Shown in pieces: positions 17,287 through 44,561 of a stretch of 64,000 nucleotides of DNA (within the stretch, counting starts at the first letter, position 1; each line of letters starts with the position of its first letter). The translations under genes were made by a program, and so were the position numbers. This DNA is from a virus. Its lineage: Duplodnaviria > Heunggongvirae > Uroviricota > Caudoviricetes. The notes beneath the pieces were generated by a model. It searched no databases. It had not been told where the DNA came from and worked only from the letters and a program-made list of their open reading frames with translations. The stretch covers positions 1-64,000 of IMG/VR virus record IMGVR_UViG_3300044618_002782; one strand, 5' to 3'.

Positions 17287-17610
17287 ATGGCTCGTATCAA
17301 GCAGTTTCCTACCTACGCCGTTGTTAACAATGAGACTCAGTGGCAACTTGTAGACGACAAACCAGTTAAGATATCTACCGTTATTGTACACGAATTTTCC
17401 ATAGGCGATGTAGAGGATCCTGATATCTATGCTGCTGACCCATTACTGGCGTGGCAGCACAGCGAAGCTGGTATGTGGGTTATGGAACACAGTGTAGAGC
17501 TGCCGCAATGGCATCGTCGAGTTGATCAGTACACGTATGGATATCGGTACTGTATTGCAGCAAGATTAACAGAACAAAACGAATTATTTTTTAAGTTGAA
17601 ATTCCAATGA
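17287..17610 (+). CDS. hypothetical protein (107 aa)
   Basis: Intact ORF; ATGA overlap with the epimerase gene. Confidence 0.4.
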   Translation: MARIKQFPTYAVVNNETQWQLVDDKPVKISTVIVHEFSIGDVEDPDIYAADPLLAWQHSEAGMWVMEHSVELPQWHRRVDQYTYGYRYCIAARLTEQNELFFKLKFQ

Positions 17611-18575
17611 AAATACTAGTAACAGGCGGTCTGGGTCTTATCGGTCACAATGTAGTTCAACGATTAGAATCACAAGGACACCATGTTGTTATTGTTGATG
17701 TTTGTACCAACTACGATCTTATTCCCTGGGACGAAATTGACTATTTGTTTGCTGAACGTCAAAAGAAAATCGCCACCAATCAGATTTATCGCACGGACAT
17801 TGTGTCTGAGGCCATGAACAATATAATAGAACAAAATCAAATTGACACTGTTGTTCACTTGGCCAGTTTTCCGCGACAAAAAGTTGTAAATGTAAATCCA
17901 CAATTGGGCAGTCAGACCATGAGCGAAGGCCTGTTAAATTTGTTGGAACTGTCTGTCCGTCATCAAGTAAAGAAGTTTGTTTATATCAGTAGCAGCATGG
18001 TCTACGGCGACTTTGCAGATCAAGTACGCGAAGATGCTGTGTGCCGCCCACAAGGGCAATACGGTATCTTAAAGTTAGCAGGCGAATGGCTGGTAAAAGA
18101 CTACACTAGAAAATCAGGCATAGCACATGTGATCATTCGTCCCAGTGCTGTGTACGGACCCTTAGATGTGAACGATCGTGTAATCAGCAAGTTCTTGCTG
18201 GCTGCCATGCGTGGTGAAACTCTCAACGTCAACGGAGCAAACGAAACCTTAGACTTTACCTATGTCGACGATGCTGCTGACGGCATTGCGGCTGCTGTCA
18301 CGTTAGACGTTGCTAACAATCGGACCTACAACATTACCAAGAGCCATAGCAAGACATTACTGGAAGCTGCTGAACTGGCAGTTCGTATTGCCAAGCGTGG
18401 CTCTATCAATGTGAGAGGGCGTGACTTGGATTTTCCCAGCCGCGGCGCATTGAATATCGATGCTGCTCGACGAGACCTAGGATACAATCCTCAAGTGGAT
18501 ATGGAAGAAGGGTTTGAGATTTATCATCGGTGGCTCCAAGAATCCCCTTACTGGCAGCAGCAGCTCAAGGCATGA
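17607..18575 (+). CDS. NAD(P)-dependent sugar epimerase/dehydratase (extended SDR)
   Basis: N-terminal Rossmann motif MKILVTGGLGLIGHNV. Catalytic S...YxxxK (YISSSMVYGD; YGILKLAGE). Confidence 0.7.
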   Translation: MKILVTGGLGLIGHNVVQRLESQGHHVVIVDVCTNYDLIPWDEIDYLFAERQKKIATNQIYRTDIVSEAMNNIIEQNQIDTVVHLASFPRQKVVNVNPQLGSQTMSEGLLNLLELSVRHQVKKFVYISSSMVYGDFADQVREDAVCRPQGQYGILKLAGEWLVKDYTRKSGIAHVIIRPSAVYGPLDVNDRVISKFLLAAMRGETLNVNGANETLDFTYVDDAADGIAAAVTLDVANNRTYNITKSHSKTLLEAAELAVRIAKRGSINVRGRDLDFPSRGALNIDAARRDLGYNPQVDMEEGFEIYHRWLQESPYWQQQLKA

Positions 18576-19660
18576 TATCATTCAACGGCCTTGATCGTCA
18601 ATATCAATCTTTAAAAAACGAAATTGACCCTGTAGCATCTCAGGTGTATGCTTCGGGGCAATTGATGAATGGTCGCTATACCGAGCAGTTCGAAACTTGG
18701 CTTGCAAGATATAACAATAGCCGTTATGCAATAACTGTGCATTCGGGTACTCATGCACTTGAGGCCATTGCTGAATTTCACCGACGAAACTTTCCTTATA
18801 CACCAACAGTATTGATCCCGTCCTTGACTTATCGAGCCACTGCCAATGCGTTCAAACGTGCAGGGTGGCATATACGATTTGTCGACACTGACCGATACGG
18901 CTTGTTGAATTTTGATAGTTTACCAGAAAAGATTGATTATGAGGCTGTGGTTATTGTGGGCTTGTACGGTGCCAGTGTGGCACACATGGGCAATCAACGA
19001 CAATGGCAAGACTGGTTATACAGAGATACACTGATAATTGAAGACGGTGCTCAACATTGGTTAGCTGACAGTGGTACTCGAGTTGGTACTGCTACTGCTA
19101 TCAGCTTTGATCCCACAAAGAATTTACCTTGCTACGGCAATGGCGGAGCTGTTGTCACAAGAGACAGTGCGTTGGCAGAATTTGTACGCAATTGGCGCGG
19201 CAATTCAATGACTGGTGGCACCACTGTTGGTACCAACAGTAGGATGAGTGAATTGGACTGTGCATTAATGATGGTCAAAGCCAATCACATTCACCAATGG
19301 CAAAATCGACGACGAGACATTGCTGCTTATTACAACGAACAATTTACAGGTACCGCAGTTAAGACTCTCATCACCGATGACATGATGTACAGCCATTGCT
19401 TTCACAAATTTGTCATCGAAGTTGACAATCAGCACCAGCTGCAACAAGATCTTGCTGCTCGCGGCATAGAAACAAAAATACATTATGTACGACCTTTGCA
19501 CGAAGAACCAATTTACAGTTGTTATCCTGGGCCTAATTCGTTGCTGAGTTGTTCTAGTACATTGAGTCGCAGAGTATTGAGCTTGCCTATCTACCCTGAA
19601 TTAACTGATAGCGAAGTAAAACACATTGCTGCTCAAGTCAAACGATGTACTGCTGATTAA
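18572..19660 (+). CDS. DegT/DnrJ/EryC1/StrS-family PLP-dependent sugar aminotransferase
   Basis: SFDPTKNLPCYGNGGAV fits the family SFHxxKxxxxGEGG PLP-lysine motif. LIPSLTYRATANAF matches the TATANAV-like block. N-terminal DRQY. Start at ATG 18572 (ATGA overlap) rather than the track's 18530. Confidence 0.7.
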   Translation: MISFNGLDRQYQSLKNEIDPVASQVYASGQLMNGRYTEQFETWLARYNNSRYAITVHSGTHALEAIAEFHRRNFPYTPTVLIPSLTYRATANAFKRAGWHIRFVDTDRYGLLNFDSLPEKIDYEAVVIVGLYGASVAHMGNQRQWQDWLYRDTLIIEDGAQHWLADSGTRVGTATAISFDPTKNLPCYGNGGAVVTRDSALAEFVRNWRGNSMTGGTTVGTNSRMSELDCALMMVKANHIHQWQNRRRDIAAYYNEQFTGTAVKTLITDDMMYSHCFHKFVIEVDNQHQLQQDLAARGIETKIHYVRPLHEEPIYSCYPGPNSLLSCSSTLSRRVLSLPIYPELTDSEVKHIAAQVKRCTAD

Positions 19661-21818
19661 AATAATCTCTTAGCCAAGCCCATTCAAACGTCAGCAACAA
19701 GCTGTCATAATTTCCCAACACTGAATCATAGTATTCTACAGCATCTTTGGCACCACGCAAGCTCCATTCGGCATGGTCGCCTTGCGCACGTTTCTGCCAT
19801 GTAGTTAGTCTGTATTCTGTTTCCACATCAGGTATGGTTTCGTAGTAGTATTGCAGTTTTACAACTTCTCTAAATGCAGTACGCCATGTGCTCCAAGGAT
19901 CTGTATTAAAGTGTGCTGTTCCGCTTAGTACGGGTTCTACACCGTGTGGCTGACTTAGTGTAAAGTCTAGACCGCGTATTTCGTCGGTCCCTAGCACTAA
20001 CTTCTTGTTGTACGCAATCAAGCCTTGATGTCCATACTCTAATCCATTTACTGGATTTCTACTATTAAAGATGTAGTGCTTGGTCTGTTGCATACGATCT
20101 GGTTGCCAACCAAAATCAAATGCAGGATCAATTTCTAGTTTGGCAAACACAGAAAAGAACCAAGGTGTTTCGCTGGCGTCGGCTGCTGCTTTGTATGCTG
20201 CGCCTCGTCCGTTGATGCCGTCGACTCTAATACAACGATTGCTCCGTCCTGCTGTAATAGTCTGCAAGTGTTGCCAATTGGCATCAGCATTGGGCTCGCT
20301 GTTGCTGAGAAAAACAATGTCTAACAGCCGATCAGATTGAAATTGTTTTGTCTTATCAATATAGGAATAATCGTATAACTGTGTTTTGATATACGGTATT
20401 GCAGCACGTGGTACAACAACAGACGAAGCTCCGGCACTAAGTGGGACAATGGTTTTTGTTTCTGCACGCCACATGGGCACAGTCGGTACATGATCAACTA
20501 TTCCGTCAACTGAAAATACTGCCAGTGGTCCAGACCATTCTGCTGTGGATACTGTCCCCACATGAGAGTCTTGGAAGTGTTGTATTACAGGTATTGCACG
20601 GCGCGGAACTGATTGATTCTTGACAAAATTTAAATCATACCAATCTAACAACTTACACTGTTCGCTACGATAAGCAAAAGTCGGGGCATGCATAAAAAAT
20701 GTGTCGCCGAATTTTTCTTCGTTGCTGGGGAATACATGTAGCATGCCTGCCTGCCACTGTTCTGGATGCCAGCTAAAATCAAAGTCGGTATAATCGCAGA
20801 TGCTGCTGCATATCCAAACAAATTCATGTTCGTACTGAACATTTTTTGCTATTCTTTTAAGAGTATCTAAGTAGTTGTCAAAATACCTGACAACTTTTGT
20901 AGTGCCAGGAATTTGTCCAGCATTACCATCCAAGAAATCTATTTCAAATACCGCAGACGCCACACGGTTTGTTTTAATTTTAATTTGATCTATGTACTTG
21001 ATGTCAGATGCCCCGGGTGCTTGATACCGAGGTCCACCTGTTTTTTGATGCTGCGTTCCAAACTGATAGATAAATTTTCCGTCAGTGTCATCAGGATGCC
21101 ATGTATAATCAAACCCGTCAAACTGGCCGTTAGGTATTTTCCAATGTTCATCGACTGTGGTTTTTAATAATCTGGGTTCGGCGCAATACTTGATGTCAGA
21201 TGCCCCGGGTACTTGATACTGAGGTCCACCTGTTTTTTGATGCTGCGTTCCGAACTGATATATGTAAGCTTGGTCCAGCAGGTCTGGGTGCCAGGAATAA
21301 TCAAAACTTAAATCAAGCACAGACCAATTGTTAGCAGTTGGCAATGCAATTGCACGTGGCGATTCTATAATTTTTATATTGTCACTGCCATTGACAAAAA
21401 CAGGGCCGCCTGTTCTTTGCCACTGTGTGCCGAAATAATACGTCACAGGCGGATCAGCAGGATCCGGGTGCCAAGAAAAATCAAATGAGCTATCTATATT
21501 TTCAGGAATATACCAGTTGTCGCAATTTGATAAACGTTTAATAAACCTATCAGCATGATATTGTGTTTCGCAGTAATCCATTTTAGGAACTAAGTATGTC
21601 CCGGAATCTTTTTGATGCTGGCTAGGCCAAGTATGGCGTTGATTGGCTTGCCATGGCACTGGTTCCCAAAGCCAATCCCAGTCTGTGTAGTCCGATAAGT
21701 AATTGACAACCCAACAGTATCGAGTGCGACTCAATTGCTGGGCATGTTCGATACTATCTGCTGCACGTTCATGCGCAAACAAGCCTGGTTTTTTACCGAT
21801 ATAGAATACATCAAACAT
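19638..21818 (-). CDS. large repeat protein with 5-6 copies of an FD(F/Y)(S/T)WHPD...Y.FGTQ(H/W)Q(K/R)TGGP module
   Basis: Repeats FDFSWHPDPADPPVTYYFGTQWQRTGGP, FDYSWHPDLLDQAYIYQFGTQHQKTGGPQYQVPGASDIKY, FDYTWHPDDTDGKFIYQFGTQHQKTGGPRYQAPGASDIKY, FDFSWHPEQWQ..., FDFGWQPDRMQ.... Function unknown. Confidence 0.5.
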   Translation of the reverse strand: MFDVFYIGKKPGLFAHERAADSIEHAQQLSRTRYCWVVNYLSDYTDWDWLWEPVPWQANQRHTWPSQHQKDSGTYLVPKMDYCETQYHADRFIKRLSNCDNWYIPENIDSSFDFSWHPDPADPPVTYYFGTQWQRTGGPVFVNGSDNIKIIESPRAIALPTANNWSVLDLSFDYSWHPDLLDQAYIYQFGTQHQKTGGPQYQVPGASDIKYCAEPRLLKTTVDEHWKIPNGQFDGFDYTWHPDDTDGKFIYQFGTQHQKTGGPRYQAPGASDIKYIDQIKIKTNRVASAVFEIDFLDGNAGQIPGTTKVVRYFDNYLDTLKRIAKNVQYEHEFVWICSSICDYTDFDFSWHPEQWQAGMLHVFPSNEEKFGDTFFMHAPTFAYRSEQCKLLDWYDLNFVKNQSVPRRAIPVIQHFQDSHVGTVSTAEWSGPLAVFSVDGIVDHVPTVPMWRAETKTIVPLSAGASSVVVPRAAIPYIKTQLYDYSYIDKTKQFQSDRLLDIVFLSNSEPNADANWQHLQTITAGRSNRCIRVDGINGRGAAYKAAADASETPWFFSVFAKLEIDPAFDFGWQPDRMQQTKHYIFNSRNPVNGLEYGHQGLIAYNKKLVLGTDEIRGLDFTLSQPHGVEPVLSGTAHFNTDPWSTWRTAFREVVKLQYYYETIPDVETEYRLTTWQKRAQGDHAEWSLRGAKDAVEYYDSVLGNYDSLLLTFEWAWLRDYFNQQYIV
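20995..21260. repeat. two ~74-bp near-identical direct repeats (20995-21068 and 21187-21260, ~95% identity, period 192 bp) inside gene 19638..21818
   Basis: TACTTGATGTCAGATGCCCCGGGT(G/A)CTTGATAC(C/T)GAGGTCCACCTGTTTTTTGATGCTGCGTTCC(A/G)AACTGATA, read directly. Encodes the duplicated YQFGTQHQKTGGP..GASDIKY protein repeats. Confidence 0.7.
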
Positions 21819-22908
21819 GATTAGAATCGACGAGATTTATAATAATACCTTTTGGCCCTGGATTGACCGAAATAAGATAGGAACAAGAATGTTCTTTTGT
21901 GATCCACCTGGGCGCAGTGACCCCGATAGTCTATTTAACTTGGGCAGAGATGATGTTGTAGAAAATGACTATGTATTTTTTCATGATCAAGAGCCAGTTC
22001 ATTTAGATCTGCACAAATCCTTGTTTGATGATGTGATTCAGCGCAATAAGGATATTTGGACTAAACCACAAGGACATGTAATAGTCAGTGAACAAGGAGA
22101 ACATGTTAAAAAGTTATGCGATCAGTATGGCTGGAAGGCGCACTACTATTTTTATCACGGTTGGGCCTGTCAAGATTGGTTTCGCGGATACGACAAAACC
22201 TTCCTAATACCACGTGCTCGAGACCGTGCGCCCAGCCGTGCTTTTATGAGCCCAAACAGAATAGTTGCTGGCAAACGAGATCATAGAGTTTTGTTTTTGT
22301 ACAATGTGTTTAAGAATAAGTTGGATCATAATTGGATTTCGGCTCCGAGAACCTGTAGTTACGAAAATGTGGACATAAGTGTGATTGCTAACAAGTATAA
22401 TAACACGTATCCAGACATAACGCAAGTGTTTGATTCAGCAGAGTTACCTAAGTTGTTTCCGGGTGAAGCAACACAACAAATGACGTCGTGTTGGCTTACT
22501 AACTTTGACGAAGCTGCTGACAGTTTAGTATATGTACCGACTGAGACTGTTTATTTTGGAAAAAGATTGCACATTACCGAAAAGACATTTAAAGCCATTG
22601 CACTGGAAATGCCGTTTGTATTGATGGCACCAGCCGGCAGCTTAGAATACATGCGCAGCTACGGCTTCCGTACTTTTGCAGATGTGTTTGACGAAAGCTA
22701 TGATTTAGAAACTGACGACATACGCAGAGTCGAGCGTGTTGTAAGTTTACTCAAGAATTTTGATACTCTATCCGTTACAGAACGTCAACAGATACATCGT
22801 GCCTGTTTGTCTGCAGTAGAGCATAACTATGCTCACTTTTACAACGGTGGGTTAACAGACGTGCTATGGAAAGAATTAACCGGAATGCTACATGGACTGC
22901 GTGTTTAA
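21817..22908 (+). CDS. glycosyltransferase-like protein, paralog family member 1 (TEK...P.V..GP...L...GF.TF...DESYD C-terminal block)
   Basis: C-terminal ITEKTFKAIALEMPFVLMAPAGSLEYMRSYGFRTFADVFDESYD resembles the (I/V)TEK(L/F)W...VPVVLGP block of GT10-type fucosyltransferases. Same block in three other ORFs. Confidence 0.4.
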   Translation: MIRIDEIYNNTFWPWIDRNKIGTRMFFCDPPGRSDPDSLFNLGRDDVVENDYVFFHDQEPVHLDLHKSLFDDVIQRNKDIWTKPQGHVIVSEQGEHVKKLCDQYGWKAHYYFYHGWACQDWFRGYDKTFLIPRARDRAPSRAFMSPNRIVAGKRDHRVLFLYNVFKNKLDHNWISAPRTCSYENVDISVIANKYNNTYPDITQVFDSAELPKLFPGEATQQMTSCWLTNFDEAADSLVYVPTETVYFGKRLHITEKTFKAIALEMPFVLMAPAGSLEYMRSYGFRTFADVFDESYDLETDDIRRVERVVSLLKNFDTLSVTERQQIHRACLSAVEHNYAHFYNGGLTDVLWKELTGMLHGLRV

Positions 22909-24082
22909 TTTTGTAGCTGATCGAATTATAAGAGACAAGGCTTATCCAGCTCTTGCTCGGCATCAAGCAACTCCATACACACCCGGGTGGCGAGAATTTG
23001 TACAGCATTGGCCAAATACTGTTCCGGTAGAACTGCACGAACACTGCCAACAGCATCAATATCCCATGCAACTACACAAAGTTGATTCTGGGTGGCCACC
23101 AGGATCTTATTACACTGTAGGGTTAGGATTTTTTGACTTTGCTGTTGATTATTTTTCTTTGATGCCGTTATCAGTATTAGGTGCATTGCGTCAGCAAACT
23201 CTGCAGGTGTTATTTTACTATCACGAAGGCGATAATCCTCACCATATTAAACAACGATTAGATACATTGTGTACGCAACACAATATTCCTTACAATTGTT
23301 ACTGTGTAATCAGTGGGAATTCAGCAGCTGATTCTGTGCCTGGGTTCGTTTATTTTCCAGACCACGAACTGTTATACTGGCAGCGAAATCAAGACGTGTT
23401 GTCGTTGCCTATTCACTGTGAATCAAGAGATTATAATTTTACAGTACTGTCCAGAACACACAAATGGTGGCGGGCTACTGTAATGACTGATTTACTGCGC
23501 AACAACCTATTGAAAAAATCTTACTGGAGCTACAGCACAGAACATTCTGTGGTAGAATCAATTGATAATAACCCTATAGAGATTGATACTTTAAATGTTC
23601 GAAAAGATATAATTCAATTTTTGGCAGGTACACCATATCGCTGTGATAAATTGACATCAGATCAACATAACGATCATCATATGATCCAAGCTGATCATTA
23701 TCTCAACTCCTACTGCAGTATAATATTGGAAACACATTTTGATGCTGATGGATCCAATGGTGCCTTTTTGACCGAAAAAACATTCCGAGCAATAAAACAT
23801 GGGCATCCATTTGTAATTGTAGGTTGCCCCGGTAGTCTTGCTGTGTTGAGAAATTTAGGATATCGCACATTTGATCATGCCATTGATAACTCATACGACA
23901 CTGTTATAAACAATACTCAAAGATGGATACAATGTCGTAACACAATCCTACAGATTCAGCAGCAAGACATGCACAATTGGTTTGAATCTTGTCGCAGCGA
24001 TATCGAACATAATCAACAATTATTTTTAGCTAGTAAATATGAACGCTTAAATAACTTACTTAAAAGACTCCGACACATATGA
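22892..24082 (+). CDS. glycosyltransferase-like protein, paralog family member 2
   Basis: LTEKTFRAIKHGHPFVIVGCPGSLAVLRNLGYRTFDHAIDNSYD, the same C-terminal block as 21817..22908. Confidence 0.4.
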   Translation: MDCVFNFVADRIIRDKAYPALARHQATPYTPGWREFVQHWPNTVPVELHEHCQQHQYPMQLHKVDSGWPPGSYYTVGLGFFDFAVDYFSLMPLSVLGALRQQTLQVLFYYHEGDNPHHIKQRLDTLCTQHNIPYNCYCVISGNSAADSVPGFVYFPDHELLYWQRNQDVLSLPIHCESRDYNFTVLSRTHKWWRATVMTDLLRNNLLKKSYWSYSTEHSVVESIDNNPIEIDTLNVRKDIIQFLAGTPYRCDKLTSDQHNDHHMIQADHYLNSYCSIILETHFDADGSNGAFLTEKTFRAIKHGHPFVIVGCPGSLAVLRNLGYRTFDHAIDNSYDTVINNTQRWIQCRNTILQIQQQDMHNWFESCRSDIEHNQQLFLASKYERLNNLLKRLRHI

Positions 24083-25098: not shown

Positions 25099-25769
25099 AA
25101 ATATTATTCAACGGCGATAGCAATATGAGCGGAGAAGAGCTAACCGATTATTCACTAGGTATAGCCAGTCACCTGGAAAAATTATTAGGAGCAACTGGAA
25201 CAACAAATCTTTCTCTTTGTGGTAGTAGCAATGACAGAATCTATGATACTACAATGGAGTATATCAGGCAAAATCGAGATGTTGATTTAGTAATAATCGG
25301 CTGGAGTGAATTTTGTCGAGTACAATGGTTTCTTACTGACCAGGGTTACCCAGAATTCTGGGAAATCAATAATTTGGGTGTAGGGAGGCAGCCGCCAGAG
25401 GAATATAAATTACGCAAAGAGAATTGGGAACGCACCTCAAGAAACAACGACTATCGAACAGGAATGTCTCATTACTGGCATGAACGAATTTATAATGTAC
25501 ACAAGTACTTTGAATTTCATAATATACCGCATTTGTTTTTTCACGCCTTCCATGATTTTAGAATAAACGAAACACAATATCAACTAGATTGGAATAAACA
25601 ATATTTTCATCCGTATAACAGTACACAAACCTACATACACTGGTGTCACGACAATGGATTCAAAGAGATTACACCAGGCTGGTATCACTATGAACCAGAT
25701 GCTCAGGAAGCCTGGGCAAATTATATCTTTAATTATATAATTGACAATAATTTATTATCAAAAAAATGA
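25095..25769 (+). CDS. SGNH-like hydrolase-fold protein (candidate esterase/acyltransferase)
   Basis: MKILFNGDSNMSGE has a GDS(N) block I at the N-terminus. Start at ATG 25095 (ATGA overlap); the track start at 25029 overlaps the upstream gene. Confidence 0.4.
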   Translation: MKILFNGDSNMSGEELTDYSLGIASHLEKLLGATGTTNLSLCGSSNDRIYDTTMEYIRQNRDVDLVIIGWSEFCRVQWFLTDQGYPEFWEINNLGVGRQPPEEYKLRKENWERTSRNNDYRTGMSHYWHERIYNVHKYFEFHNIPHLFFHAFHDFRINETQYQLDWNKQYFHPYNSTQTYIHWCHDNGFKEITPGWYHYEPDAQEAWANYIFNYIIDNNLLSKK

Positions 25770-28044: not shown

Positions 28045-28176
28045 TATACTTTCCTATTAAACATACTTGTCAACTATGAGTTTAATTATTTTATTGATTA
28101 AAACAATGGTATACTCAAAATTAGATCACTGTAACTCTGATAATCAAAAACTCTCTCTCTAAAACAATTATATTTT

Positions 28177-29295: not shown

Positions 29296-29296
29296 A

Positions 29297-38619: not shown

Positions 38620-40003
38620 GTGCTTCGCACTCCTTCCACCAGGTGGTCATTTCAGGAAATGTTTTTAAAAAATTAGTTCCACGTCGACGATCATGCTCAC
38701 TAAAAAACTTATAAAAGTCTGCTTTCTTTTCTGCAACACAATCAGTTCCAGATCGCATCCAGGCAATGTCTCGACGCATACGCTGCACTTCGTAGTCTTT
38801 GAAACCGTGGAAAGGATCCTCTGGGGTTTCTAAATTTAATTCCATCCAGTCTGCTACACGTTCCAAAATTCCAGCATACGCGGGCGGAAGTATTTGTAGA
38901 CTTTGCCAAGCAGGTTGACGCAGCAACGGTGTGTCAAACCACACACGTTGATAAGTTTTGCTATATGCTCTGCGCATTGCTAATATATCTTCTAGTAGCT
39001 TTTGCAAACCTAAAATACTGAGATTATTCATTGTGATAATAAATGTAAGGCTGTTGCGATTAGGGATTTCAAACAAGAAGTGATGTGAGTAAGCCATTAC
39101 ACGATCGTAATTCATACCATGTCTAATATATTCAGCTTGATGTGCATTGCCACTATCGAGACTAACATACTGCATAAAGTGTTCGATTTGTGTATTGCAT
39201 AATTGTTTTACATAACCAATATACTTTTCAAACAAGCCAGTTTCGACACTGAAGTTGCTGGTAACATTTAAATGCAGGTCAGGATTGGGCAAGGCCAGCA
39301 CATAGTCAAACACCCGGTAGGTATTCTTATCCATAAGTGGTTCGCCGCCGGTCATACGAAAATGTTTCAACTGTGGATATAGTGTAGGCCACCATCGCCA
39401 AAATGCTTCTACGTAAGGATTAGCGTCCCTAGCAGGAATAGGCCGGTTACGGCCAGTAAAATGACTAGGATCGTTGTGAATACGACTCGTAGGGTATCCG
39501 CCCAGACGGTTAATTTCTTGTTCCCATGTGGAACTAAATTGAGGACTGCAATAACTACAAGCAAGATTACAAGCGTGATTAAAATTAACCTCCACATAAC
39601 TAGGAACGACATCTTCATCTCCGGTTGAGTTTTTAACAAAATCTAATGCATCAGCAGCCCAAGGCTCTCCAGATCGATAGTGACGATCACTTAGGTTACC
39701 AGTATCTTCAATGTTCCAACAGTAACTACATTCTGCAGGACGTTCCTGGCGTAACATGATTTTGCGCTGTTCTTTCTTGAATAGTGTATTGTGTAATGCA
39801 CCTGGGTTGTCTTCCAGTAGCGTGGCATCAATGGCATGCAAAGGAGGATGATAGCATGAATTGTTCAACCCAGTAGGCAAGTGCAAGCTAACTTGTTTCC
39901 ATTTGGCCAAGCATAATCCTGTACCGAGTTCTTGTTTCATTTGTTCTGCTGAACTCATGAATCGACTTTTGTTGTCAAACAATTTGTCTCCCTTATTTGA
40001 CAC
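38603..40003 (-). CDS. radical SAM enzyme, paralog family B member 3
   Basis: CNLACSYC and MTGGEPLMDKN. N-terminus LCLAKWKQVSLHLPTGLNNSCYH...CSYCW. C-terminus HDRRRGTNFLKTFPEMTTWW. Confidence 0.65.
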   Translation of the reverse strand: MSNKGDKLFDNKSRFMSSAEQMKQELGTGLCLAKWKQVSLHLPTGLNNSCYHPPLHAIDATLLEDNPGALHNTLFKKEQRKIMLRQERPAECSYCWNIEDTGNLSDRHYRSGEPWAADALDFVKNSTGDEDVVPSYVEVNFNHACNLACSYCSPQFSSTWEQEINRLGGYPTSRIHNDPSHFTGRNRPIPARDANPYVEAFWRWWPTLYPQLKHFRMTGGEPLMDKNTYRVFDYVLALPNPDLHLNVTSNFSVETGLFEKYIGYVKQLCNTQIEHFMQYVSLDSGNAHQAEYIRHGMNYDRVMAYSHHFLFEIPNRNSLTFIITMNNLSILGLQKLLEDILAMRRAYSKTYQRVWFDTPLLRQPAWQSLQILPPAYAGILERVADWMELNLETPEDPFHGFKDYEVQRMRRDIAWMRSGTDCVAEKKADFYKFFSEHDRRRGTNFLKTFPEMTTWWKECEAHARSA

Positions 40004-40810
40004 TTAATTTAGCCCCATCTGTTGTCGAATTTCAGTTCCAGATATTTGGGTAATTTCTTTGTCAAATGTTTCCTCACCAGATGTATATCCTACTCCACGC
40101 CCCCATCCAATGTGTACAATATTGGGAACCACTTGTATTTCGTACTGTCCTTGGTACAAGGGATCTAAGTCGTGTCTGATACGCTGTTTAACTTCTTCTA
40201 GACCAAATGGGTTAGAACCTTGCCATCCTTGCACGTCACGTATTTGAATAACGACCTGTCCAGTTTTTGCAAGTAGTCTTTCAAACAGAGCACGATGTCC
40301 CGGATGCCAAGGTTGCCAGCGTCCCAACATCTGCACTGTTTCTTTGCGCCAGTCAAACACTGGACGACGCTGATTAGACAAAATGTGATCAGCAACAAAC
40401 ACTGACCATTTGGCAGCATCTTGTTCGATTATTCTAAAGTCATATACAGTAGGTGGGATAAAGGCCTTGTTGGTATCTTCGTATCGCCCTTGCTCAATTG
40501 TATCCATCCAGACTGTCCAGTCTGCTTTAAAGTTATTGCGCATTTCCACTAACGGAGCAACAAAGTCGCAAATAACATAATCGGCAGCAGACTGTTCTGC
40601 TAATTCTGCCATTCTGAGACTTTGACGAATGCGTCCAGTTTCGGTAAAGTCCCAGTCATTGAATTTCTTGCGTACTTCGTCAGCATTAAACCAATCGACT
40701 GTAATGCCGAATCCTTCGTATTTAATATCCTCAACGTGATTTTTTAATGCTGTTGCTAGTGTAGTTTTTCCTGCGCCAGGAAGTCCCATTATTAATATTT
40801 TTTGTGCCAT
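40004..40810 (-). CDS. fusion protein: APS-kinase-like P-loop domain + compact HxGH nucleotidyltransferase-like domain
   Basis: N-terminal ILIMGLPGAGKTTLATAL. ADEVRKKFNDWDFTETGRIRQSLRMAELAEQSAADYVICDFVAPL parallels CysC GDNVRHGLN.DLGFS..DR.ENIRRVAEVAKL...AG...ISP. C-terminal GRWQPWHPGHRALFE is a Q...P.HxGH motif, cf. cytidylyltransferase-like/ATP-sulfurylase HxxH. Confidence 0.5.
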   Translation of the reverse strand: MAQKILIMGLPGAGKTTLATALKNHVEDIKYEGFGITVDWFNADEVRKKFNDWDFTETGRIRQSLRMAELAEQSAADYVICDFVAPLVEMRNNFKADWTVWMDTIEQGRYEDTNKAFIPPTVYDFRIIEQDAAKWSVFVADHILSNQRRPVFDWRKETVQMLGRWQPWHPGHRALFERLLAKTGQVVIQIRDVQGWQGSNPFGLEEVKQRIRHDLDPLYQGQYEIQVVPNIVHIGWGRGVGYTSGEETFDKEITQISGTEIRQQMGLN

Positions 40811-40822
40811 ATTATCAACTCC

Positions 40823-41434
40823 TTAATTAATTGGATATTTCCAGTCGGACAAATAAAATTTTACTTCATCTAGATTTTCTATCATTAACTCTGGTAAAAA
40901 TGCATAAGAATTTTTTTTGATTGTCGATTTTGTAAAATCTATGTCTTCGTAGTACAACGTCGTGTCTGCTTGAAATTGATCGTCTATTAGTTGTTCTATA
41001 ATAAATTGCTCTATATCATTGTAACTTACACAATAAGACTTTGGGGCAACATAATCCTGAAATTGATGATCAAAGTGATAAATGGCTCCTATTGATTTAA
41101 AATAAATCCAACTAGCAAACTGCTTGACTTTATCTCTACGTCTTATATTAACAATATACGAATTTTCCTTTAATTGTTTAATTTTTGGTAAGATTCCAAT
41201 TTTGCCATTGAGCTGTACTGCGTGTGCTAACATCGGTCTTGCTGATATAGATAAAAAAGGATCAAAATCTCTCCAGGGTGTTTTTGAGCACTGACTCATT
41301 GCAATTTCTCCTAGATAATTTAGAGCATTTTTTTCTTTCTTTATCATCGAACCCATTGGATGTGTACCCGATCTTGGCGAACCTATAATCAAAATATTTT
41401 TATTTTGAGATTGCGCAATTATATTGTTCACCAT
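40823..41434 (-). CDS. sulfotransferase-like P-loop protein (Stf0-like candidate)
   Basis: N-terminal ILIIGSPRSGTHPMGSMI resembles the sulfotransferase 5'-PSB loop (P[KR]SG[ST]). ~200 aa. Adjacent to the APS-kinase-like gene. Confidence 0.4.
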   Translation of the reverse strand: MVNNIIAQSQNKNILIIGSPRSGTHPMGSMIKKEKNALNYLGEIAMSQCSKTPWRDFDPFLSISARPMLAHAVQLNGKIGILPKIKQLKENSYIVNIRRRDKVKQFASWIYFKSIGAIYHFDHQFQDYVAPKSYCVSYNDIEQFIIEQLIDDQFQADTTLYYEDIDFTKSTIKKNSYAFLPELMIENLDEVKFYLSDWKYPIN

Positions 41435-42354
41435 CCTTCTTGTTTCCGAATTACATCAATTTCTCTTACCATGACACCTTGATTATGCCAGTTTCCGCGA
41501 TAATGATGCTTGAAGAATCGACTTTGTTGATTGTTTAACATGCACATGGGCAAGTCCAATTGTGTGTATAGTGCATCCTGATATGTTTGAATAACTTCAG
41601 CAGGGTCTCGTCCGTGTGTATCTTGCCAAATAGCATCTAATGCATCAAACCATTGCACTTCACGATAATCCCAATCAGTTAACATGGCCTTGTACGTACC
41701 CATTCTGGCGCCGGCTATGGCCCATGCACCTTGTTCAACGTCTGCACCTACATTGTGCCATACACTAAGATGATCTAAATTGCGACGATGAACACGATCT
41801 CGAAATTCAGTTAACGTGGGCTTTCGACCTTTGTCTAAGCACATCTTGACACCTTCTCTGAAACCGGCACGCCAGGCATGTTTGGGACTGCCGTTGGGAT
41901 GTGTGGTTGAATAGCAATCGTGCATGGACCAATATGCAGGGTCAAAGCAAAATTCAACTACTGTTTCGTCGCGACCGTCGGTGTTCTCGTGTGTTTTCAT
42001 GTTGAGCACATGATCTCGAGTCCAGGAACTGATGCCACCGTTACCGTACATGAGCCCGTTGATGTGATTACGGGCACGCCAGCGATACACTGCCTTTTCA
42101 TATTCTGCAGAGGGATAAGAAAGTGTTAAGTTAAAAAATTCCCAGTCCGGCATGTTGTCGCCGTCAATGAGAACAAATCTTTCAGTGCTGCTGGCCTCAG
42201 CCGCAGCTTTGTGTGCTGCGTCGCTGCCTTTGACGCCATCCACACGTTGAGCCCAGGGTATTTGATTTTTGATTTTGACCCAGAATTCTTCTTTCTGTGG
42301 TTCGTCGTACGTGAGATAAATCACATCCAAGTCTGCTATGTCAACTGTTGTCAT
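41428..42354 (-). CDS. hypothetical protein (308 aa), possible GT-A-like (FVLIDGDNMP DxD-like motif)
   Basis: Intact ORF. The DxD-like motif is weak evidence only. Confidence 0.3.
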   Translation of the reverse strand: MTTVDIADLDVIYLTYDEPQKEEFWVKIKNQIPWAQRVDGVKGSDAAHKAAAEASSTERFVLIDGDNMPDWEFFNLTLSYPSAEYEKAVYRWRARNHINGLMYGNGGISSWTRDHVLNMKTHENTDGRDETVVEFCFDPAYWSMHDCYSTTHPNGSPKHAWRAGFREGVKMCLDKGRKPTLTEFRDRVHRRNLDHLSVWHNVGADVEQGAWAIAGARMGTYKAMLTDWDYREVQWFDALDAIWQDTHGRDPAEVIQTYQDALYTQLDLPMCMLNNQQSRFFKHHYRGNWHNQGVMVREIDVIRKQEGW

Positions 42355-42685: not shown

Positions 42686-43469
42686 CCGGGTTCCAAGTTT
42701 TTATATTGTAATGAAATAGTCCGTGTTGTGCTACAGTATTGATTCGCAACTGACCTTGGTCATATTCCCATACCAGTTCCTGTGTCCAGTCATCTGTTCG
42801 AGTACCTATTATTCTACGCTTCATGTGTACTATACGCGGGTAAGTAGCAAACGGCATTGTGACCAGTTCGGGACCGATGATTTGCGCTGCCACAGCATAG
42901 ACCAGGTCAGTAGTGGCAGTGTCTTCGGGAAACTTTAATAAAGTTTTGTACTGGTTCCAGTTTTCAAAAATTCTTCTTACCAGGCGCCAGAAGTTTGTGG
43001 CAGTTTGGCTTAGTCGCCAATAAGTCACTGCGTTATAAACGTCAGGTAAATGATTCGAATCAAACACTTTTCTGTAGTATCTGTTGCTGGTAACTGTGCC
43101 GTAGTAGTCTCGAGCACCGGTAGAGATTACCACATCGCGATGCTGTAACATGGTCCACCAATGGTCAACAGGACTGGTAACCAACATGTCAGCTTCTAGT
43201 TTGATTGTTTGCCTAAAAGGAGTTGCTATACCTGCTTGCCAATCGTTGTTGAGCTTCCACAACTGCTCGACAGATTGGTCACCCAACGGTAAGGTTATCA
43301 CATGATCAAATTCAGGCAAGTCCTGCGGTTGATCAGTCAACAAACAGGTCTGCACTGTGGGATGCCAATGCTTGAGGCTGGCATTCAATCGACGAGCACA
43401 GGCGATGTAATCAGTTGTGTCTGTGTTGACAGCAACAATCAAGTATCCGCGTTCAGCTAGCACTGGCAA
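42675..43469 (-). CDS. hypothetical protein (264 aa), possible nucleotide-sugar transferase fold
   Basis: N-terminal YLIVAVNTDTTDYI is Rossmann-like. Paralogous organisation with 43453..44256. Confidence 0.3.
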   Translation of the reverse strand: MPVLAERGYLIVAVNTDTTDYIACARRLNASLKHWHPTVQTCLLTDQPQDLPEFDHVITLPLGDQSVEQLWKLNNDWQAGIATPFRQTIKLEADMLVTSPVDHWWTMLQHRDVVISTGARDYYGTVTSNRYYRKVFDSNHLPDVYNAVTYWRLSQTATNFWRLVRRIFENWNQYKTLLKFPEDTATTDLVYAVAAQIIGPELVTMPFATYPRIVHMKRRIIGTRTDDWTQELVWEYDQGQLRINTVAQHGLFHYNIKTWNPDEQ

Positions 43470-44256
43470 TGATGTCTCCTAAATGCCGTTTTCCCATGGC
43501 ATGAAAATCTTGTCCTGCAATCACAACGTGGTGTAGTTTATTATTACTGGTTGTGTATGAAACTCGAAACTGATCAGTAGAGATTTGTTCTAGTCCATGC
43601 TCTGGCACTACACTGGCCAGTTTCCATGGTACAGTGGGCCAGTGTCCTTGATGTCCATGCAAGGTATTTAGAGCTATACTCAAGGCATGGTCGTTGCGAT
43701 AAGTTGATCGAGCGATGCCATAGAGATTTCGGTAGTGTTGCCAATTTTCTCGAATCATACGCATCATTTCAAACACACTTTTACTCAACAAGGATCGCCT
43801 AAATCTCATGACTGTGGCCCAGGCCATGGGCATGCGATGCAAGCCAAACCAATTTAAATCATCGAAGGTGCGTATGCCAGTAACATCATATGCTGTGATT
43901 GGTGCTAAAAAATCCTGCGGCATTTCAAACAACAGATTTAATTGATCGCTGCAGACAACATAGTCAGCGTCTAGCACTAGTGTTTCGTCGTAAGGGCTCA
44001 GATTATACACATCCATACGATTGCCGTTGAACCAAGAGACATTGTGACCAATATCACTAAAGTATCTGGTGCCACCGGACTCGGCAGTGGTTACAACAAC
44101 ATCTTTGAACGCAGTTGAGTCAGCAGGCACAACATCAGTTATTAGCGTGGTTGGCAATCCCAGGTGTTTGGCAATACGTCTAGCACTCCAAGCTGCCATT
44201 GCTTGATAATCAATATCACCACTATTGTAAGCAAATATAACTACGCCACGCATCAT
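43453..44256 (-). CDS. hypothetical protein (267 aa), possible GT-A-like (VLDADYVV DxD motif)
   Basis: N-terminal VVIFAYNSGDIDYQ, then LVLDADYVVCSD. Weak, motif-only evidence. Confidence 0.35.
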   Translation of the reverse strand: MMRGVVIFAYNSGDIDYQAMAAWSARRIAKHLGLPTTLITDVVPADSTAFKDVVVTTAESGGTRYFSDIGHNVSWFNGNRMDVYNLSPYDETLVLDADYVVCSDQLNLLFEMPQDFLAPITAYDVTGIRTFDDLNWFGLHRMPMAWATVMRFRRSLLSKSVFEMMRMIRENWQHYRNLYGIARSTYRNDHALSIALNTLHGHQGHWPTVPWKLASVVPEHGLEQISTDQFRVSYTTSNNKLHHVVIAGQDFHAMGKRHLGDIIASAS

Positions 44257-44561
44257 CGTTGTTGAGATAACGTTTCGTATTCAACTAGCCAAGCATTCAT
44301 TTGTTCATTCCATCGTTCCTGACTCAGCTTCATTAGTTCAACAGAATTGACTTTAACTGGCGTTTCGTATAAATCTGGTAAAACAATTTCTCCCATGCGA
44401 CCGCAGGTAAAAATCATTGCGTGTAATTCTGGACCAGCACGCCACATACCGCCGGCGTGCGCAAACAGCATTTTAGCTTCGTACTTTTCTTTCAACACAC
44501 GTCGAGCCGCTGCATGATCAAAACGGCTGCGTGCTTGAGTAACAAGATCGTCAGTATTCAT
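44253..44561 (-). CDS. hypothetical protein (102 aa)
   Basis: First gene downstream of the structural module on the minus strand; ATGA-coupled to the next gene. Confidence 0.4.
   Translation of the reverse strand: MNTDDLVTQARSRFDHAAARRVLKEKYEAKMLFAHAGGMWRAGPELHAMIFTCGRMGEIVLPDLYETPVKVNSVELMKLSQERWNEQMNAWLVEYETLSQQR

Follow-up and report, generated by a model that had tools for sequence, protein, structure and literature searches.

A conserved enzyme-rich locus of uncultured jumbo myoviruses and its possible role in building and tailoring a glycan

What might a phage make with six radical SAM (rSAM) enzymes, an amidinotransferase, a carbamoyltransferase and a series of glycosyltransferase (GT)-like proteins encoded side by side? 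This question was raised by positions 17287-44561 of a viral DNA stretch of 64,000 nucleotides (the window; positions 1 to 64,000 of IMG/VR record IMGVR_UViG_3300044618_002782). Within the window, the island contained 26 ORFs of at least 100 aa (Table 1) rather than the approximately 28 of an earlier sequence-only reading, while its coding share of 98.9% agreed with the near absence of gaps described there. Eight four-base start/stop overlaps confirmed the ATGA/GTGA-type couplings, and several overlaps were longer. The baseplate wedge (phrog_10646, 3e-122), the tail-fibre-like genes and hundreds of IMG/VR relatives showed that the locus is phage-borne.

Table 1. ORFs of the island and two neighbouring fibre-type genes, with their occurrence in related loci
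Product	Position	Strand	Basis	Related loci
107-aa ORF, function not assigned, accessory	17287..17610	+	no Pfam or PHROG match	no match in 80 IMG/VR loci
NAD-dependent sugar epimerase/dehydratase, 322 aa, accessory	17607..18575	+	PF01370 7e-43; GDP_Man_Dehyd 2.5e-34	5/53, only 24% identity
DegT/DnrJ/EryC1-type PLP sugar aminotransferase, 376 aa, accessory	18530..19660	+	PF01041 5.6e-62	4/53
Repeat protein, 726 aa	19638..21818	-	three or more ~60-aa repeats; C-terminal GT2-like-homologous domain; no Pfam match	orthologs beside core
GT-B-fold paralog, 363 aa, core	21817..22908	+	HHalign 99.2% to 379-aa family	45/53
GT-B-fold paralog, 396 aa, core	22892..24082	+	HHalign 99.4% to 379-aa family, 253 columns	46/53
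Amidinotransferase, 339 aa, core	24079..25098	+	ortholog profile vs PDB	51/53, median 86% identity
SGNH-like ORF, 246 aa, accessory (start probably ATG 25095)	25029..25769	+	'NGDSNMSG'; DUF6071 1e-5, below cutoff	2/53
SGNH-like ORF, 264 aa, accessory	25853..26647	-	'VGDSYCSS' only; no profile match	11/53, 27% identity
N-twitch rSAM paralog, 472 aa, accessory sixth copy	26626..28044	-	NF033640 1e-80; CNLACSYC, GGEP	few with a copy in same slot
GT-B-fold paralog, 372 aa, accessory	28177..29295	-	blastp to 363-, 396-, 379-aa paralogs	1/53
NodU/CmcH-type carbamoyltransferase, 496 aa, core	29297..30787	-	Carbam_trans_C 4e-49; Carbam_trans_N 2e-32	53/53, 68% identity
Protein without assigned function, 373 aa, core	30872..31993	-	cyclophilin-like barrel, helical bundle	
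N-twitch rSAM paralog, 433 aa, core	31959..33260	-	NF033640 2e-84	53/53, 73% identity
N-twitch rSAM paralog, 405 aa, core	33238..34455	-	NF033640 2e-101	
N-twitch rSAM paralog, 568 aa, core	34452..36158	-	NF033640 2e-119, residues 169-566	69/70
N-twitch rSAM paralog, 442 aa, core	36155..37483	-	NF033640 1e-86	70/70
GT-B-fold GT-like protein, 379 aa, core	37480..38619	-		
N-twitch rSAM paralog, 466 aa, core	38603..40003	-	NF033640 8e-87	70/70
P-loop APS-kinase-like/HxGH nucleotidyltransferase fusion, 268 aa, accessory	40004..40810	-	APS_kinase 3.6e-9 (residues 4-96); NMNAT-type 1.7e-5 (161-216); 'WHPGH'	0/70 at corresponding position
Sulfotransferase-like ORF, 203 aa, accessory	40823..41434	-	'IIGSPRSGTH' only; no profile match	4/70
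GT2-like (GT-A-like) candidate, 308 aa, core	41428..42354	-	'RFILIDGDN', column identity 82%	64/70
Conserved protein without assigned function, 114 aa	42341..42685	-	no Pfam match; not PqqD-like by HHalign	61/70
GT-A-like candidate, 264 aa	42675..43469	-	'LEADM' DxD-like motif	
GT-A-like candidate, 267 aa	43453..44256	-	'LDADY'; N-terminal Rossmann-like pattern	
Conserved protein without assigned function, 102 aa	44253..44561	-	no Pfam match	38/70 within reach
Thr/Gly/Ala-rich fibre-like protein, 327 aa, candidate glycan acceptor	44640..45623	-	outside island; Thr 21.7%; neither Pfam nor PHROG match	
Tail-fibre-like structural protein, 452 aa	45643..47001	-	phrog_14394 (virion structural protein) 6e-10; phrog_6427 1.5e-15	

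A relative of the 405-aa rSAM was encoded on 172 IMG/VR stretches. Eighty loci, 70-80% identical to this rSAM and on contigs of up to 349 kb, were compared over 10 kb to either side of its gene, and presence was counted among those reaching far enough (n = 53 or 70, depending on the gene). Five rSAMs, the carbamoyltransferase and the 373-aa protein were present in all of them, except for one rSAM missing from a single locus; the amidinotransferase and GT-like genes were present in most. Gene order was fixed, with three variable slots that held the epimerase, DegT, kinase fusion, sulfotransferase-like and SGNH-like genes, the sixth rSAM and one GT-B. In the relatives, which encoded six to eight rSAMs each, the slots held further tailoring genes (2OG oxygenase, AMP-binding, NMO, APS kinase, DegT). 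The idea of a hypervariable insertion was therefore abandoned, since the core is conserved and syntenic over a large jumbo-phage clade and only the slots vary. The carriers are a large, widespread clade of uncultured aquatic (freshwater) jumbo myoviruses, and the conserved block encodes some 17 soluble enzymes, among them eight likely sugar transferases, at least five unusual rSAMs, the amidinotransferase and the carbamoyltransferase.

All six rSAMs carried CxxxCxxC and GGEP and scored above the NF033640 cutoff, so that the predicted number of six was upheld and all are assigned by profile to one uncharacterised family with an N-terminal twitch domain. The 472-aa copy shared 42% identity with the 442-aa paralog (blastp), and the 568-aa paralog had an N-terminal extension of about 165 aa and a SPASM match (3e-13) at residues 173-239. 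Matches to solved structures were weak (viperin 5e-5; 8vpo, an unnamed radical SAM core protein, 5e-5; MoaA 5e-3; BlsE 2e-2). One Paenibacillus family member lies in an ACP/KS/KR lipid-type cluster; the family is therefore not restricted to sugars. The rSAMs may alternatively act in protein modification.

The amidinotransferase gave no match in the Pfam search, and its call was secured by the ortholog profile, which matched AGAT (2e-19), HsvA (3e-14), StrB1 (4e-14) and SxtG (2e-13) in the PDB. The catalytic Cys and His aligned ('GGISCCT' with AGAT 'GGFHCWT', 'GHGDA' with 'HIDA'), consistent with an AGAT/StrB1-type enzyme, and its conservation was the highest among the island proteins. For the NodU/CmcH-type carbamoyltransferase, as had been proposed, both the N and C domains were matched. 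About 3,000 metagenomic homologs were found for each of the 379- and 373-aa proteins, and none was annotated.

Fold evidence and paralogy supported four GT-B-fold proteins, in line with the at least four GT-like paralogs expected. The two or three other GT-A-like candidates were called from motifs only; the 308-, 267- and 264-aa proteins had no profile or fold match: none in the PDB for the first, and none in the PDB or Pfam for the other two, which were mutually paralogous (HHalign 98.4%). Of 28 orthologs scanned (8 of the 308-aa, 20 of the 267/264 families), three matched Glyco_tranf_2_3 weakly, with a best E of 0.004. The repeat protein, also anticipated, had three clear repeats of about 60 aa ('FDYSWHPD...FGTQHQKTGGP', at residues 112, 172 and 236), and its residues 499-705 matched the 308-aa ORF (blastp 8e-9).

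Among the slot genes, profile matches plus motifs bore out the epimerase (GxxGxxG at residue 7, YxxxK at 152) and the DegT enzyme (SFDPTK lysine motif), and both halves of the kinase fusion were matched by profile. The sulfotransferase-like and two SGNH-like calls kept their motifs but had no profile support beyond the weak DUF6071 match. The genes for amination and putative sulfation are accessory and lie outside the conserved core.

None of the 26 proteins contained a TM helix or corresponded to a flippase (Wzx), a polymerase (Wzy), an ABC exporter or a polyprenyl-P (initiating) transferase, which argues for a cytoplasmic pathway and acceptor. Up to eight soluble GT-like proteins (four GT-B, three GT-A-like and the C-terminal domain of the 726-aa protein) would assemble a saccharide in the cytoplasm. 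The five conserved, non-redundant N-twitch rSAMs, acting with the carbamoyltransferase, the 373-aa cyclophilin-like protein and the amidinotransferase, would remodel and decorate sugars or nucleotide-sugars through radical oxidation, epimerisation or deoxygenation, O-carbamoylation and amine guanidinylation. The strain-specific epimerase/dehydratase, DegT, APS-kinase-like fusion with the sulfotransferase-like ORF, SGNH-like esterases, extra GT-B and extra rSAM may extend the variation. We infer that the most likely product of the block is a sugar chain with many decorations, made through chemistry so far undescribed. Its target may alternatively be the host envelope. DNA may also be the acceptor, although the argument for its hypermodification from thyX found no support within the window.

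The most likely acceptor would be a virion fibre protein, because the block follows immediately on the genes for the baseplate, the giant protein and the tail fibres, is transcribed in line with them, and starts directly behind the fibre-like 327-aa protein with 30% Ser+Thr. The order was baseplate wedge, 4691-aa, 201-aa, tail fibre, Thr-rich 327-aa, 102-aa and two GT-A-like genes, spaced by 0-160 bp, and the position of the 327-aa gene directly 5' of the GT-A pair was conserved. In the distant marine relatives L150 and L157, the 452-aa protein was still syntenic with the island, and the order of tail fibre, GT-A pair, 308-aa protein and rSAM was retained. The adjacency may instead stem merely from shared late expression or from the layout of the genome. 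Of the 26 genes, just the 18 in the block 25853-44561 shared the minus strand of the tail-fibre and giant-protein genes, which had been stated for the whole island. On that strand the structural genes come first and the island follows downstream of them, contrary to the upstream position given before. Plus-strand genes occupied 17287-19660 and 21817-25769; eight of the 26, among them the genes for the amidinotransferase and for two core GT-B paralogs, run in the opposite direction and so lie outside the structural operon. Sigma-70 promoter and terminator scans were at chance level, and the operon structure of the island stays putative. Taken with its proposed steps and the fibre acceptor, the reading of the island as a conserved glycan-building and glycan-tailoring module is held tentatively, as somewhat short of probable.

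The coherent set of sugar-type modification enzymes goes far beyond the usual phage glycosylation cassettes, as first suggested. The likeness to aminoglycoside pathways does not go beyond the enzyme classes: no cyclitol synthase was found, and the rSAM architecture differs from that of BtrN. The product may alternatively be a small molecule. Other genomes bear out a functional link between the carbamoyltransferase and the rSAMs. In Bacteriovoracaceae, the carbamoyltransferase and an N-twitch rSAM are fused in a single protein of 934/942 aa, whose gene adjoins DegT, GT1, Zn-ADH and a homolog of the 373-aa protein, while Bacteriovorax stolpii has the two unfused, with FdtA, three DegT genes and GT1. 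In the bacterial clusters, a small Peptidase_S74 (fibre-chaperone) protein lies beside the same enzymes, which also favours the tie to fibres. Ralstonia phage RsoM2USA keeps the rSAM and carbamoyltransferase together (RsoM2USA_202, 53% identity to the 442-aa rSAM; RsoM2USA_199, 45% to the carbamoyltransferase), and marine virus AG-345-D19 keeps both with the amidinotransferase. For the tie to fibres, pelagimyophages offer a precedent: their tail-fibre 'host recognition cluster' has been described as carrying glycosyltransferases and rSAM cassettes (PMC7029224).

Analysis of a 690-aa ORF in the window revealed a match to the baseplate wedge family (phrog_10646, 3e-122), and about 30% identity to the corresponding proteins of the jumbo myoviruses Atu_ph07, Phosso and 121Q/PBECO4/G17; the sequence is therefore viral. 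On the - strand, the gene run passed from this wedge gene through the genes of the 4691-aa, 201-aa, tail-fibre-like 452-aa and Thr-rich 327-aa proteins directly into the largest segment of the biosynthetic island. The island contained 26 ORFs of at least 100 aa. Coding sequence made up 98.9% of it, and the ORFs overlapped by 4 bp at eight start/stop junctions and by more at several others; its GC content was 41.4%, compared with 43.5% for the remainder of the window. The sequence-only reading of this region was largely correct as an observation, except for its strand statement, its gene count and calls made from motifs alone. It had counted about 28 genes and placed the island directly upstream of the tail-fibre/giant-protein module, on the same strand; however, two segments were encoded on the + strand, and on the - strand the island lies downstream of the structural genes. 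Its interpretation as a pathway for a heavily modified sugar or glycan was partly supported.

Features of the window and of the island, with positions and strands
Position	Strand	Feature
860-2950	+	696-aa protein, CHASE2 sensor domain fused to adenylate/guanylate cyclase
4421-7470	+	Rubrerythrin, GDSL-like fragment, metallophosphoesterase
7501-10814	-	TctA tricarboxylate-transporter large subunit, 442 aa
17287-44561		Island
17287-19660	+	Island segment co-directional with thyX and MoxR/VWA genes
	-	726-aa gene of the island
21817-21818		2-bp overlap of the start codons of the divergent 726-aa (-) and 363-aa (+) genes
21817-25769	+	Island genes
24079-25098	+	339-aa amidinotransferase
25853		264-aa ORF, candidate SGNH enzyme
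25853-44561	-	18 island genes, unbroken continuation of the structural-gene block
34452-36158	-	568-aa radical-SAM enzyme
47819-61894	-	4691-aa ORF

Because the start codons of the 726-aa and 363-aa genes overlap, there is no intergenic room for promoters between them; the DegT gene (+) and the 726-aa gene (-) are convergent, with a 23-bp overlap. Scans for sigma-70 promoters and terminators gave results at chance level, and no tRNAs, Rfam families or tandem repeats were found in the region. The 4691-aa ORF had no Pfam match, showed no internal repeats in self-blastp and contained little Lys, His, Cys and Met. A relative (L163) whose 379-aa protein was 90% identical encoded a 4690-aa counterpart, and the ORF is probably a giant structural or fibre protein. 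Elsewhere in the window, the CHASE2-cyclase protein, an unusual signalling gene for a virus, had about four membrane segments. TctA (5e-52) had 12 hydrophobic segments and was followed just downstream on the - strand by two co-oriented ORFs (292 and 364 aa), the first with a hydrophobic segment at its N-terminus; the three look like a phage-borne transporter operon. Speculatively, the rubrerythrin (3e-25) could shield oxygen-sensitive Fe-S radical-SAM enzymes.

All six radical-SAM (rSAM) ORFs of the island carried the CN(L/F)(K/A)C(R/S)xC and GGEP motifs of the radical SAM superfamily and matched PF04055 (2e-10 to 7e-3). They scored 271-399 bits against NF033640 (N_Twi_rSAM, NCBIfam; curated cutoff 170 bits), which placed them in that family and bore out the earlier count of six such enzymes. 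The six were mutual paralogs with 18-42% identity. In the 405-aa rSAM, four invariant N-terminal Cys residues (C8, C27, C73, C76) preceded the CxxxCxxC motif, and Pfam SPASM matches were N-terminal in three of the six; a Cys-rich SPASM/twitch domain N-terminal to the rSAM core (N-twitch) is an unusual arrangement. The N-twitch family comprised 1,499 representatives (50%-identity clusters) at E<=1e-30, none of them characterised. Weak sequence matches among solved rSAMs were viperin (5e-5), 8vpo (an unnamed radical SAM core protein, 5e-5), MoaA (5e-3), SkfB (8e-3) and BlsE (2e-2). The 568-aa rSAM had an N-terminal extension of about 165 aa present only in some relatives; its coverage was about 0.75 in most loci and 1.0 in two (L022 and L078).

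Most of the remaining enzyme calls made at first reading withstood profile analysis. Curated profiles matched the NAD epimerase/dehydratase (7e-43) and the DegT aminotransferase (6e-62), and also confirmed ThyX just outside the island. Both domains of the NodU/CmcH-type carbamoyltransferase exceeded their gathering thresholds (Carbam_trans_N: 2e-32, 113 bits, cutoff 24; Carbam_trans_C: 4e-49, 167 bits, cutoff 27). The amidinotransferase was missed by Pfam; a profile of 21 orthologs matched human AGAT (2e-19) and also HsvA, StrB1 (4e-14) and SxtG. Its invariant catalytic C324 ('GGISCCT') aligned with AGAT 'GGFHCWT' and its invariant H185/D187 ('GHGDA') with AGAT 'HIDA', so that by residue alignment it qualifies as a predicted catalytically intact amidinotransferase of the AGAT/StrB1/SxtG fold. 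The 268-aa ORF was, as proposed, a P-loop kinase with APS-kinase similarity (Pfam APS_kinase 4e-9, 37 bits, a partial match to profile positions 4-94 of 152; NCBIfam scores far below cutoffs) fused to an HxGH nucleotidyltransferase (2e-5). The repeat protein was identified as the 726-aa ORF, with three clear repeats of about 60 aa and, at its C-terminus, a domain homologous to the 308-aa protein. Two other calls stood at motif level: a 'GSPRSGTH' motif in the 203-aa ORF, which had no profile match, suggests a sulfotransferase, and 'GDS' blocks in the 246-aa ORF and the 264-aa ORF at 25853 suggest two SGNH enzymes.

The four proposed glycosyltransferase (GT)-like paralogs (363, 396, 372 and 379 aa) were homologous by blastp and HHalign (99%), but no sequence-level family could be assigned to them. 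For the 379-aa protein, an AlphaFold2 model (pLDDT 92.9) predicted a GT-B-like fold; its Foldseek matches had weak E-values and were mostly to GT-B enzymes, a few unrelated folds appearing further down. The GT-A-like candidates of 267, 264 and 308 aa carried the DxD-type motifs LDADY, LEADM and LIDGDN, and the 267- and 264-aa ORFs were paralogs (HHalign 98%); the C-terminus of the 726-aa ORF was a further candidate of this type. However, profile support was very weak, Glyco_tranf_2_3 being matched by 3 of 28 orthologs with a best E-value of 0.004. PDB profile searches of the 373-, 379-, 308-, 267- and 264-aa families gave no significant match. Searches of PHROGs, NCBIfam and Pfam with the island ORFs of no known function returned almost nothing, and HHalign of the island families against the annotated GTs, KdsB and a sulfotransferase of cyanophage S-SCSM2R stayed at or below 20% probability, these being single-sequence and uninformative targets.

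T4 BGT and AGT were among the top fold matches of the 379-aa model, as would be expected if the GT-B and GT-A proteins glycosylated a modified base and the other enzymes tailored its sugar, shielding the genome from restriction or CRISPR. DNA hypermodification had also been suggested from the nearby thyX. ThyX, however, makes ordinary dTMP, and the ORFs scanned in the 64-kb window included ThyX but no dNMP hydroxymethylase, DpdA/7-deazaguanine gene, 5-hmdU kinase or other modified-base supply gene. On these 64 kb, the explanation is regarded as very unlikely.

None of the 26 island proteins had a membrane helix, and no hydrophobic segment attained a KD19 value of 1.6 apart from a borderline 1.63 in an rSAM core; all are predicted from sequence to be soluble. 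Pfam gave no matches among the island ORFs for an initiating polyprenyl-P transferase, Wzx/Wzy, flippase, polymerase, ligase or ABC exporter, and the island did not have the composition of an O-antigen- or capsule-type envelope polysaccharide cluster.

Megablast of 24 kb against the INPHARED phages returned no match, which indicates that there is no close cultured relative. In IMG/VR, 172 stretches encoded a relative of the 405-aa rSAM, and 80 of them, 70-80% identical to it and on contigs of up to 349 kb, were kept for comparison (+/-10 kb around the gene). Every locus that extended far enough showed the same core genes in a fixed order. Read on the - strand of the window, this order was tail fibre, 327-aa, 102-aa, GT-A-like 267-aa, GT-A-like 264-aa, 114-aa, 308-aa, a slot, 466-aa rSAM, GT-B-like 379-aa, 442-aa rSAM, 568-aa rSAM, 405-aa rSAM, a slot, 433-aa rSAM, 373-aa, carbamoyltransferase and a slot; on the opposite strand came the amidinotransferase and the GT-B-like 396-aa and 363-aa genes, and then the 726-aa gene. 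Among loci reaching the gene in question, four of the rSAMs, the carbamoyltransferase and the 373-aa protein were present in all (53/53 or 70/70), the 568-aa rSAM in 69/70, the 379-aa protein in 68/70 and the amidinotransferase in 51/53. The median identity of the amidinotransferase was 86%, the island maximum, with values of up to 91% and neighbours at 38-73%, which implies unusually strong constraint. Its exact sequence occurred in 29 indexed blocks of the assembly collection (15 contigs read), and a 199.5-kb JGI contig had an identical amidinotransferase and the same gene order across the overlapping 21 kb.

The conserved block comprised about 17 genes, including five N-twitch rSAM orthogroups. 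The epimerase, DegT, kinase/nucleotidyltransferase fusion, sulfotransferase-like and SGNH-like ORFs, the 372-aa GT-B-like protein and the sixth rSAM were rare or absent at these positions, and in the relatives the slots were filled by different tailoring genes. In one relative, 21 kb held at least eight rSAMs as well as DegT, an APS kinase, an epimerase, a dCMP deaminase and a 2OG oxygenase; in a second, the slots carried AMP-binding, NMO and extra rSAM genes. The suggestion that the whole island is a hypervariable insertion was ruled out by the conserved synteny. Conserved order combined with varying slot genes instead shows a conserved core with diversifying slots.

Varying tailoring slots would fit an arms race at the cell surface. 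The product could accordingly remodel the host envelope, altering LPS, capsule or S-layer glycans during infection and, for example, blocking superinfection or the adsorption of progeny to lysed cells. Host O-chain modification is the published reading of GTs beside tail fibres in pelagimyophages (PMC7029224), and Nol-like carbamoyltransferases and glycan clusters are common in cyanophages. Without membrane machinery in the island, however, the host would have to supply every membrane step, and the conservation of the core, above all of the amidinotransferase, across phages that share 40-70% identity in their other proteins is unexpected for enzymes tuned to diverse host envelope chemistries. 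Envelope remodelling was considered unlikely.

Metagenomic homologs numbered about 2,900-3,100 each for the 379- and 373-aa proteins, none of them annotated; the phage clade carrying the island is abundant. Parts of the block were also found in other viruses. A single 8-kb fragment of marine virus AG-345-D19 combined the amidinotransferase and the carbamoyltransferase with an rSAM and a relative of the 246-aa ORF. In Ralstonia jumbo phage RsoM2USA an rSAM (53% to the 442-aa ORF) lay two genes from a carbamoyltransferase (45%), and HHalign of the flanking genes against the island families found nothing. Vibrio phage K566 had four clustered N-twitch rSAMs. Five loci (L084, L085, L086, L150 and L157) held the island in full synteny on contigs binned into Haliscomenobacter, Legionellales and Rickettsiales MAGs; these are most likely mis-binned phage contigs, at best a weak host hint. 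The Moraphages, reported to infect Bacteroidota and to have four core GT orthogroups, were weighed as a possible match to the clade of the island and set aside, since no radical SAM is reported for them and identity with the clade was not established (PMC12619734).

Genomes (one per species) were scanned with an alignment of three rSAM paralogs, the six-paralog version being too divergent. Homologs of the N-twitch rSAMs with 30-40% identity came chiefly from Bacteriovoracaceae/Bdellovibrionota, Flavobacteriales, Polyangiaceae and Paenibacillus, frequently in tandem groups of 2-5 paralogs. A 934/942-aa protein of two Bacteriovoracaceae assemblies (L103:1060-3864 (-) and P0242) consisted of two carbamoyltransferase domains joined to an N-twitch rSAM. 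The full-length fusion was confirmed in 2 among the best 120 matches, and P0290 (983 aa) was a third long protein. The fusion adjoined a DegT aminotransferase, Zn-ADH, GT1 and further rSAMs, and its neighbourhood in L165 encoded a 294-aa protein homologous to the 373-aa phage protein (HHalign 94%, E 8e-8). In Bacteriovorax stolpii the carbamoyltransferase and rSAM were unfused, in the company of GT1, three DegT genes and the sugar ketoisomerase FdtA. The fusion and its neighbours place the carbamoyltransferase, the 373-aa protein and the rSAM family in a single pathway and point toward nucleotide-sugar-type chemistry. In Paenibacillus polysaccharolyticus (L108), an N-twitch rSAM was located in a cluster of ACP, rSAM, FabG, KS, KS, GT2, thioesterase and PPTase genes, which hints that this branch of the family acts on a lipid or polyketide.

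The Bacteriovoracaceae loci also held a PqqD-like protein and a small Peptidase_S74-domain protein. In L164 (B. stolpii CP030035.1, 177132-198787) and L165, the PqqD-like protein and a C-terminal-SPASM rSAM lay beside a Peptidase_S74 protein of 147-166 aa, in which an N-terminal stretch of about 45-55 residues preceded a 'GSD' auto-cleavage-like site; this may be a novel precursor architecture with a fibre-chaperone domain as follower. Since the PqqD-like protein is an RRE protein and the S74 protein a possible precursor, the phage rSAMs could act directly on a protein or peptide, cross-linking or epimerising a fibre, the giant protein or a small precursor in RiPP style; that polypeptide would then be decorated by the GTs, the carbamoyltransferase and the amidinotransferase, for instance through guanidinylation of lysine. 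SPASM/twitch rSAMs are often peptide maturases, several weak NCBIfam matches were of that type, and the island borders the fibre genes and the 4691-aa structural protein, which could itself be the precursor. In the island, however, no RRE or PqqD-like protein was found by Pfam; the 102- and 114-aa proteins gave HHalign probabilities below 1% against PqqD, and the 327- and 452-aa proteins showed no S74 similarity by HHalign, and both pairs of candidates were rejected. Moreover, the bacterial PqqD gene pairs with a different rSAM, of 244 aa and with C-terminal SPASM, whereas the N-twitch rSAM is fused to a carbamoyltransferase beside DegT, which is sugar-type chemistry. The weak solved neighbours were mostly nucleotide or nucleoside-sugar enzymes (viperin, MoaA, BlsE), although the peptide maturase SkfB was also present. 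Direct action on a polypeptide was judged quite unlikely.

BlsE and viperin, as nearest solved rSAMs, and the Paenibacillus ACP/KS cluster, which is natural-product-like, would also be compatible with a diffusible or intracellular small molecule, such as an aminoglycoside-, nucleoside- or guanidino-sugar-type metabolite inhibiting host or competitor functions. The StrB1-type amidinotransferase, TobZ-type carbamoyltransferase, twitch rSAM and DegT are enzyme classes of aminoglycoside and nucleoside antibiotic pathways, and to this extent the resemblance noted at first reading held. It failed at the defining step: Pfam and NCBIfam found no 2-DOI synthase, inositol-phosphate synthase or resistance or export gene in the 26 ORFs, and for want of a cyclitol synthase an aminoglycoside/aminocyclitol cluster was ruled out. 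The island also had no NRPS/PKS, eight GT-like proteins are excessive for a small pseudo-oligosaccharide, and the conserved synteny with fibre genes would be left unexplained. A small-molecule product was accordingly held to be highly doubtful.

The locus encoded up to eight GT-like proteins, five conserved and non-redundant rSAM orthogroups, an amidinotransferase and a carbamoyltransferase, and is classified as a putative phage glycan-biosynthesis module associated with tail-fibre genes. The GT-like proteins would assemble a saccharide in the cytoplasm. The rSAMs, carbamoyltransferase and 373-aa protein, with the amidinotransferase, would generate and decorate unusual sugars, and the slot genes would vary the product by amination, sulfation, (de)acylation and oxidation. 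The most likely acceptor is the virion fibre proteins, an assignment to which we give somewhat less than even confidence. It is favoured because the block is co-directional with the baseplate, giant-protein and fibre genes and trails them at intervals of 0-160 bp, because it begins directly after a fibre-like protein with 30% Ser/Thr, because the order tail fibre, GT-A pair, 308-aa, rSAM is kept in distant marine relatives, and because a pathway without membrane steps needs a cytoplasmic acceptor. As in phage virion glycosylation, GT-like genes lie beside structural genes.

More tentatively, the N-twitch rSAMs (5-8), carbamoyltransferase and 373-aa protein could form an unrecognised radical tailoring cassette common to aquatic jumbo phages and predatory Bacteriovoracaceae, which with the near-invariant amidinotransferase might yield a new class of carbamoylated, guanidinylated sugar, or sugar-peptide linkage, on trimeric fibre proteins; we consider this possible but rather doubtful. 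If true, it would be a virus-encoded, membrane-independent protein glycosylation of a chemical complexity unprecedented in bacteriophages. Glycan genes beside phage tail fibres have been noted for years, and we know of no product that has been identified. The island is a conserved, well-delimited and very abundant instance of such genes, and the fusion makes the chemistry directly testable, as do the mini-cassettes of two isolated phages (RsoM2USA and K566) and of B. stolpii, whose genome is complete. Should the product decorate fibres, virion glycosylation would extend to Gram-negative jumbo phages, with a bearing on host recognition, evasion of grazers or defences, and new radical-SAM carbohydrate chemistry.

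Among described systems, the tail-fibre 'host recognition cluster' known from pelagimyophages and cyanomyophages comes closest; it contains glycosyltransferases and radical-SAM cassettes, and envelope remodelling has been proposed for its LPS-type genes (PMC7029224). Like the island, it is a large myovirus region combining tail-fibre genes with many GTs, sugar-nucleotide enzymes and rSAM cassettes, and Nol-like carbamoyltransferases are common in that group. Those regions are described as hypervariable with GT8/LPS-type enzymes, whereas the island has a strictly conserved, syntenic block of about 17 genes, among them an AGAT-type amidinotransferase, members of unclassified GT families and the five N-twitch rSAM orthogroups. 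In a T4-like marine genome, 12 rSAM genes have been reported without an explanation (PMC5332604).

For the favoured acceptor, the closest mechanistic precedent is the virion glycosylation cassettes of mycobacteriophages (Freeman et al. 2023, cited in PMC12619734). In these, phage GTs are encoded beside structural genes and act on virion proteins in the cytoplasm without membrane machinery. Such cassettes are much smaller than the island and are not known to include radical-SAM, amidino- or carbamoyl-transfer genes. Chloroviruses and Mimivirus synthesise unusual amino and deoxy sugars in the cytoplasm independently of the host, and viral GTs transfer them to capsid or fibre proteins; these giant eukaryotic viruses differ from the island phage in virus realm and host domain and, to our knowledge, have no radical-SAM arrays and no amidino- or carbamoyl-transfer.

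The Bacteriovoracaceae cluster (CP030035.1 177-199 kb; L103, L165) shares with the island the carbamoyltransferase, extra N-twitch rSAMs, DegT and a GT-B enzyme. PqqD, the small Peptidase_S74 protein, C-terminal-SPASM rSAM, B12-rSAMs, FdtA and methylmalonyl-CoA mutase are further members of the bacterial clusters, which lack the amidinotransferase and the phage GT families. Aminoglycoside tailoring (StrB1, TobZ, BtrN, DegT-type) likewise unites four enzyme classes in one locus; in the island, however, the twitch domain is N-terminal rather than C-terminal, with no significant similarity to BtrN, there is no 2-deoxy-scyllo-inosose or inositol-phosphate synthase, and eight GT-like genes stand in a phage structural context. 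What sets the island apart from the described phage systems is its strict conservation, the N-twitch rSAM array, the AGAT-type amidinotransferase and the unclassified GT families.
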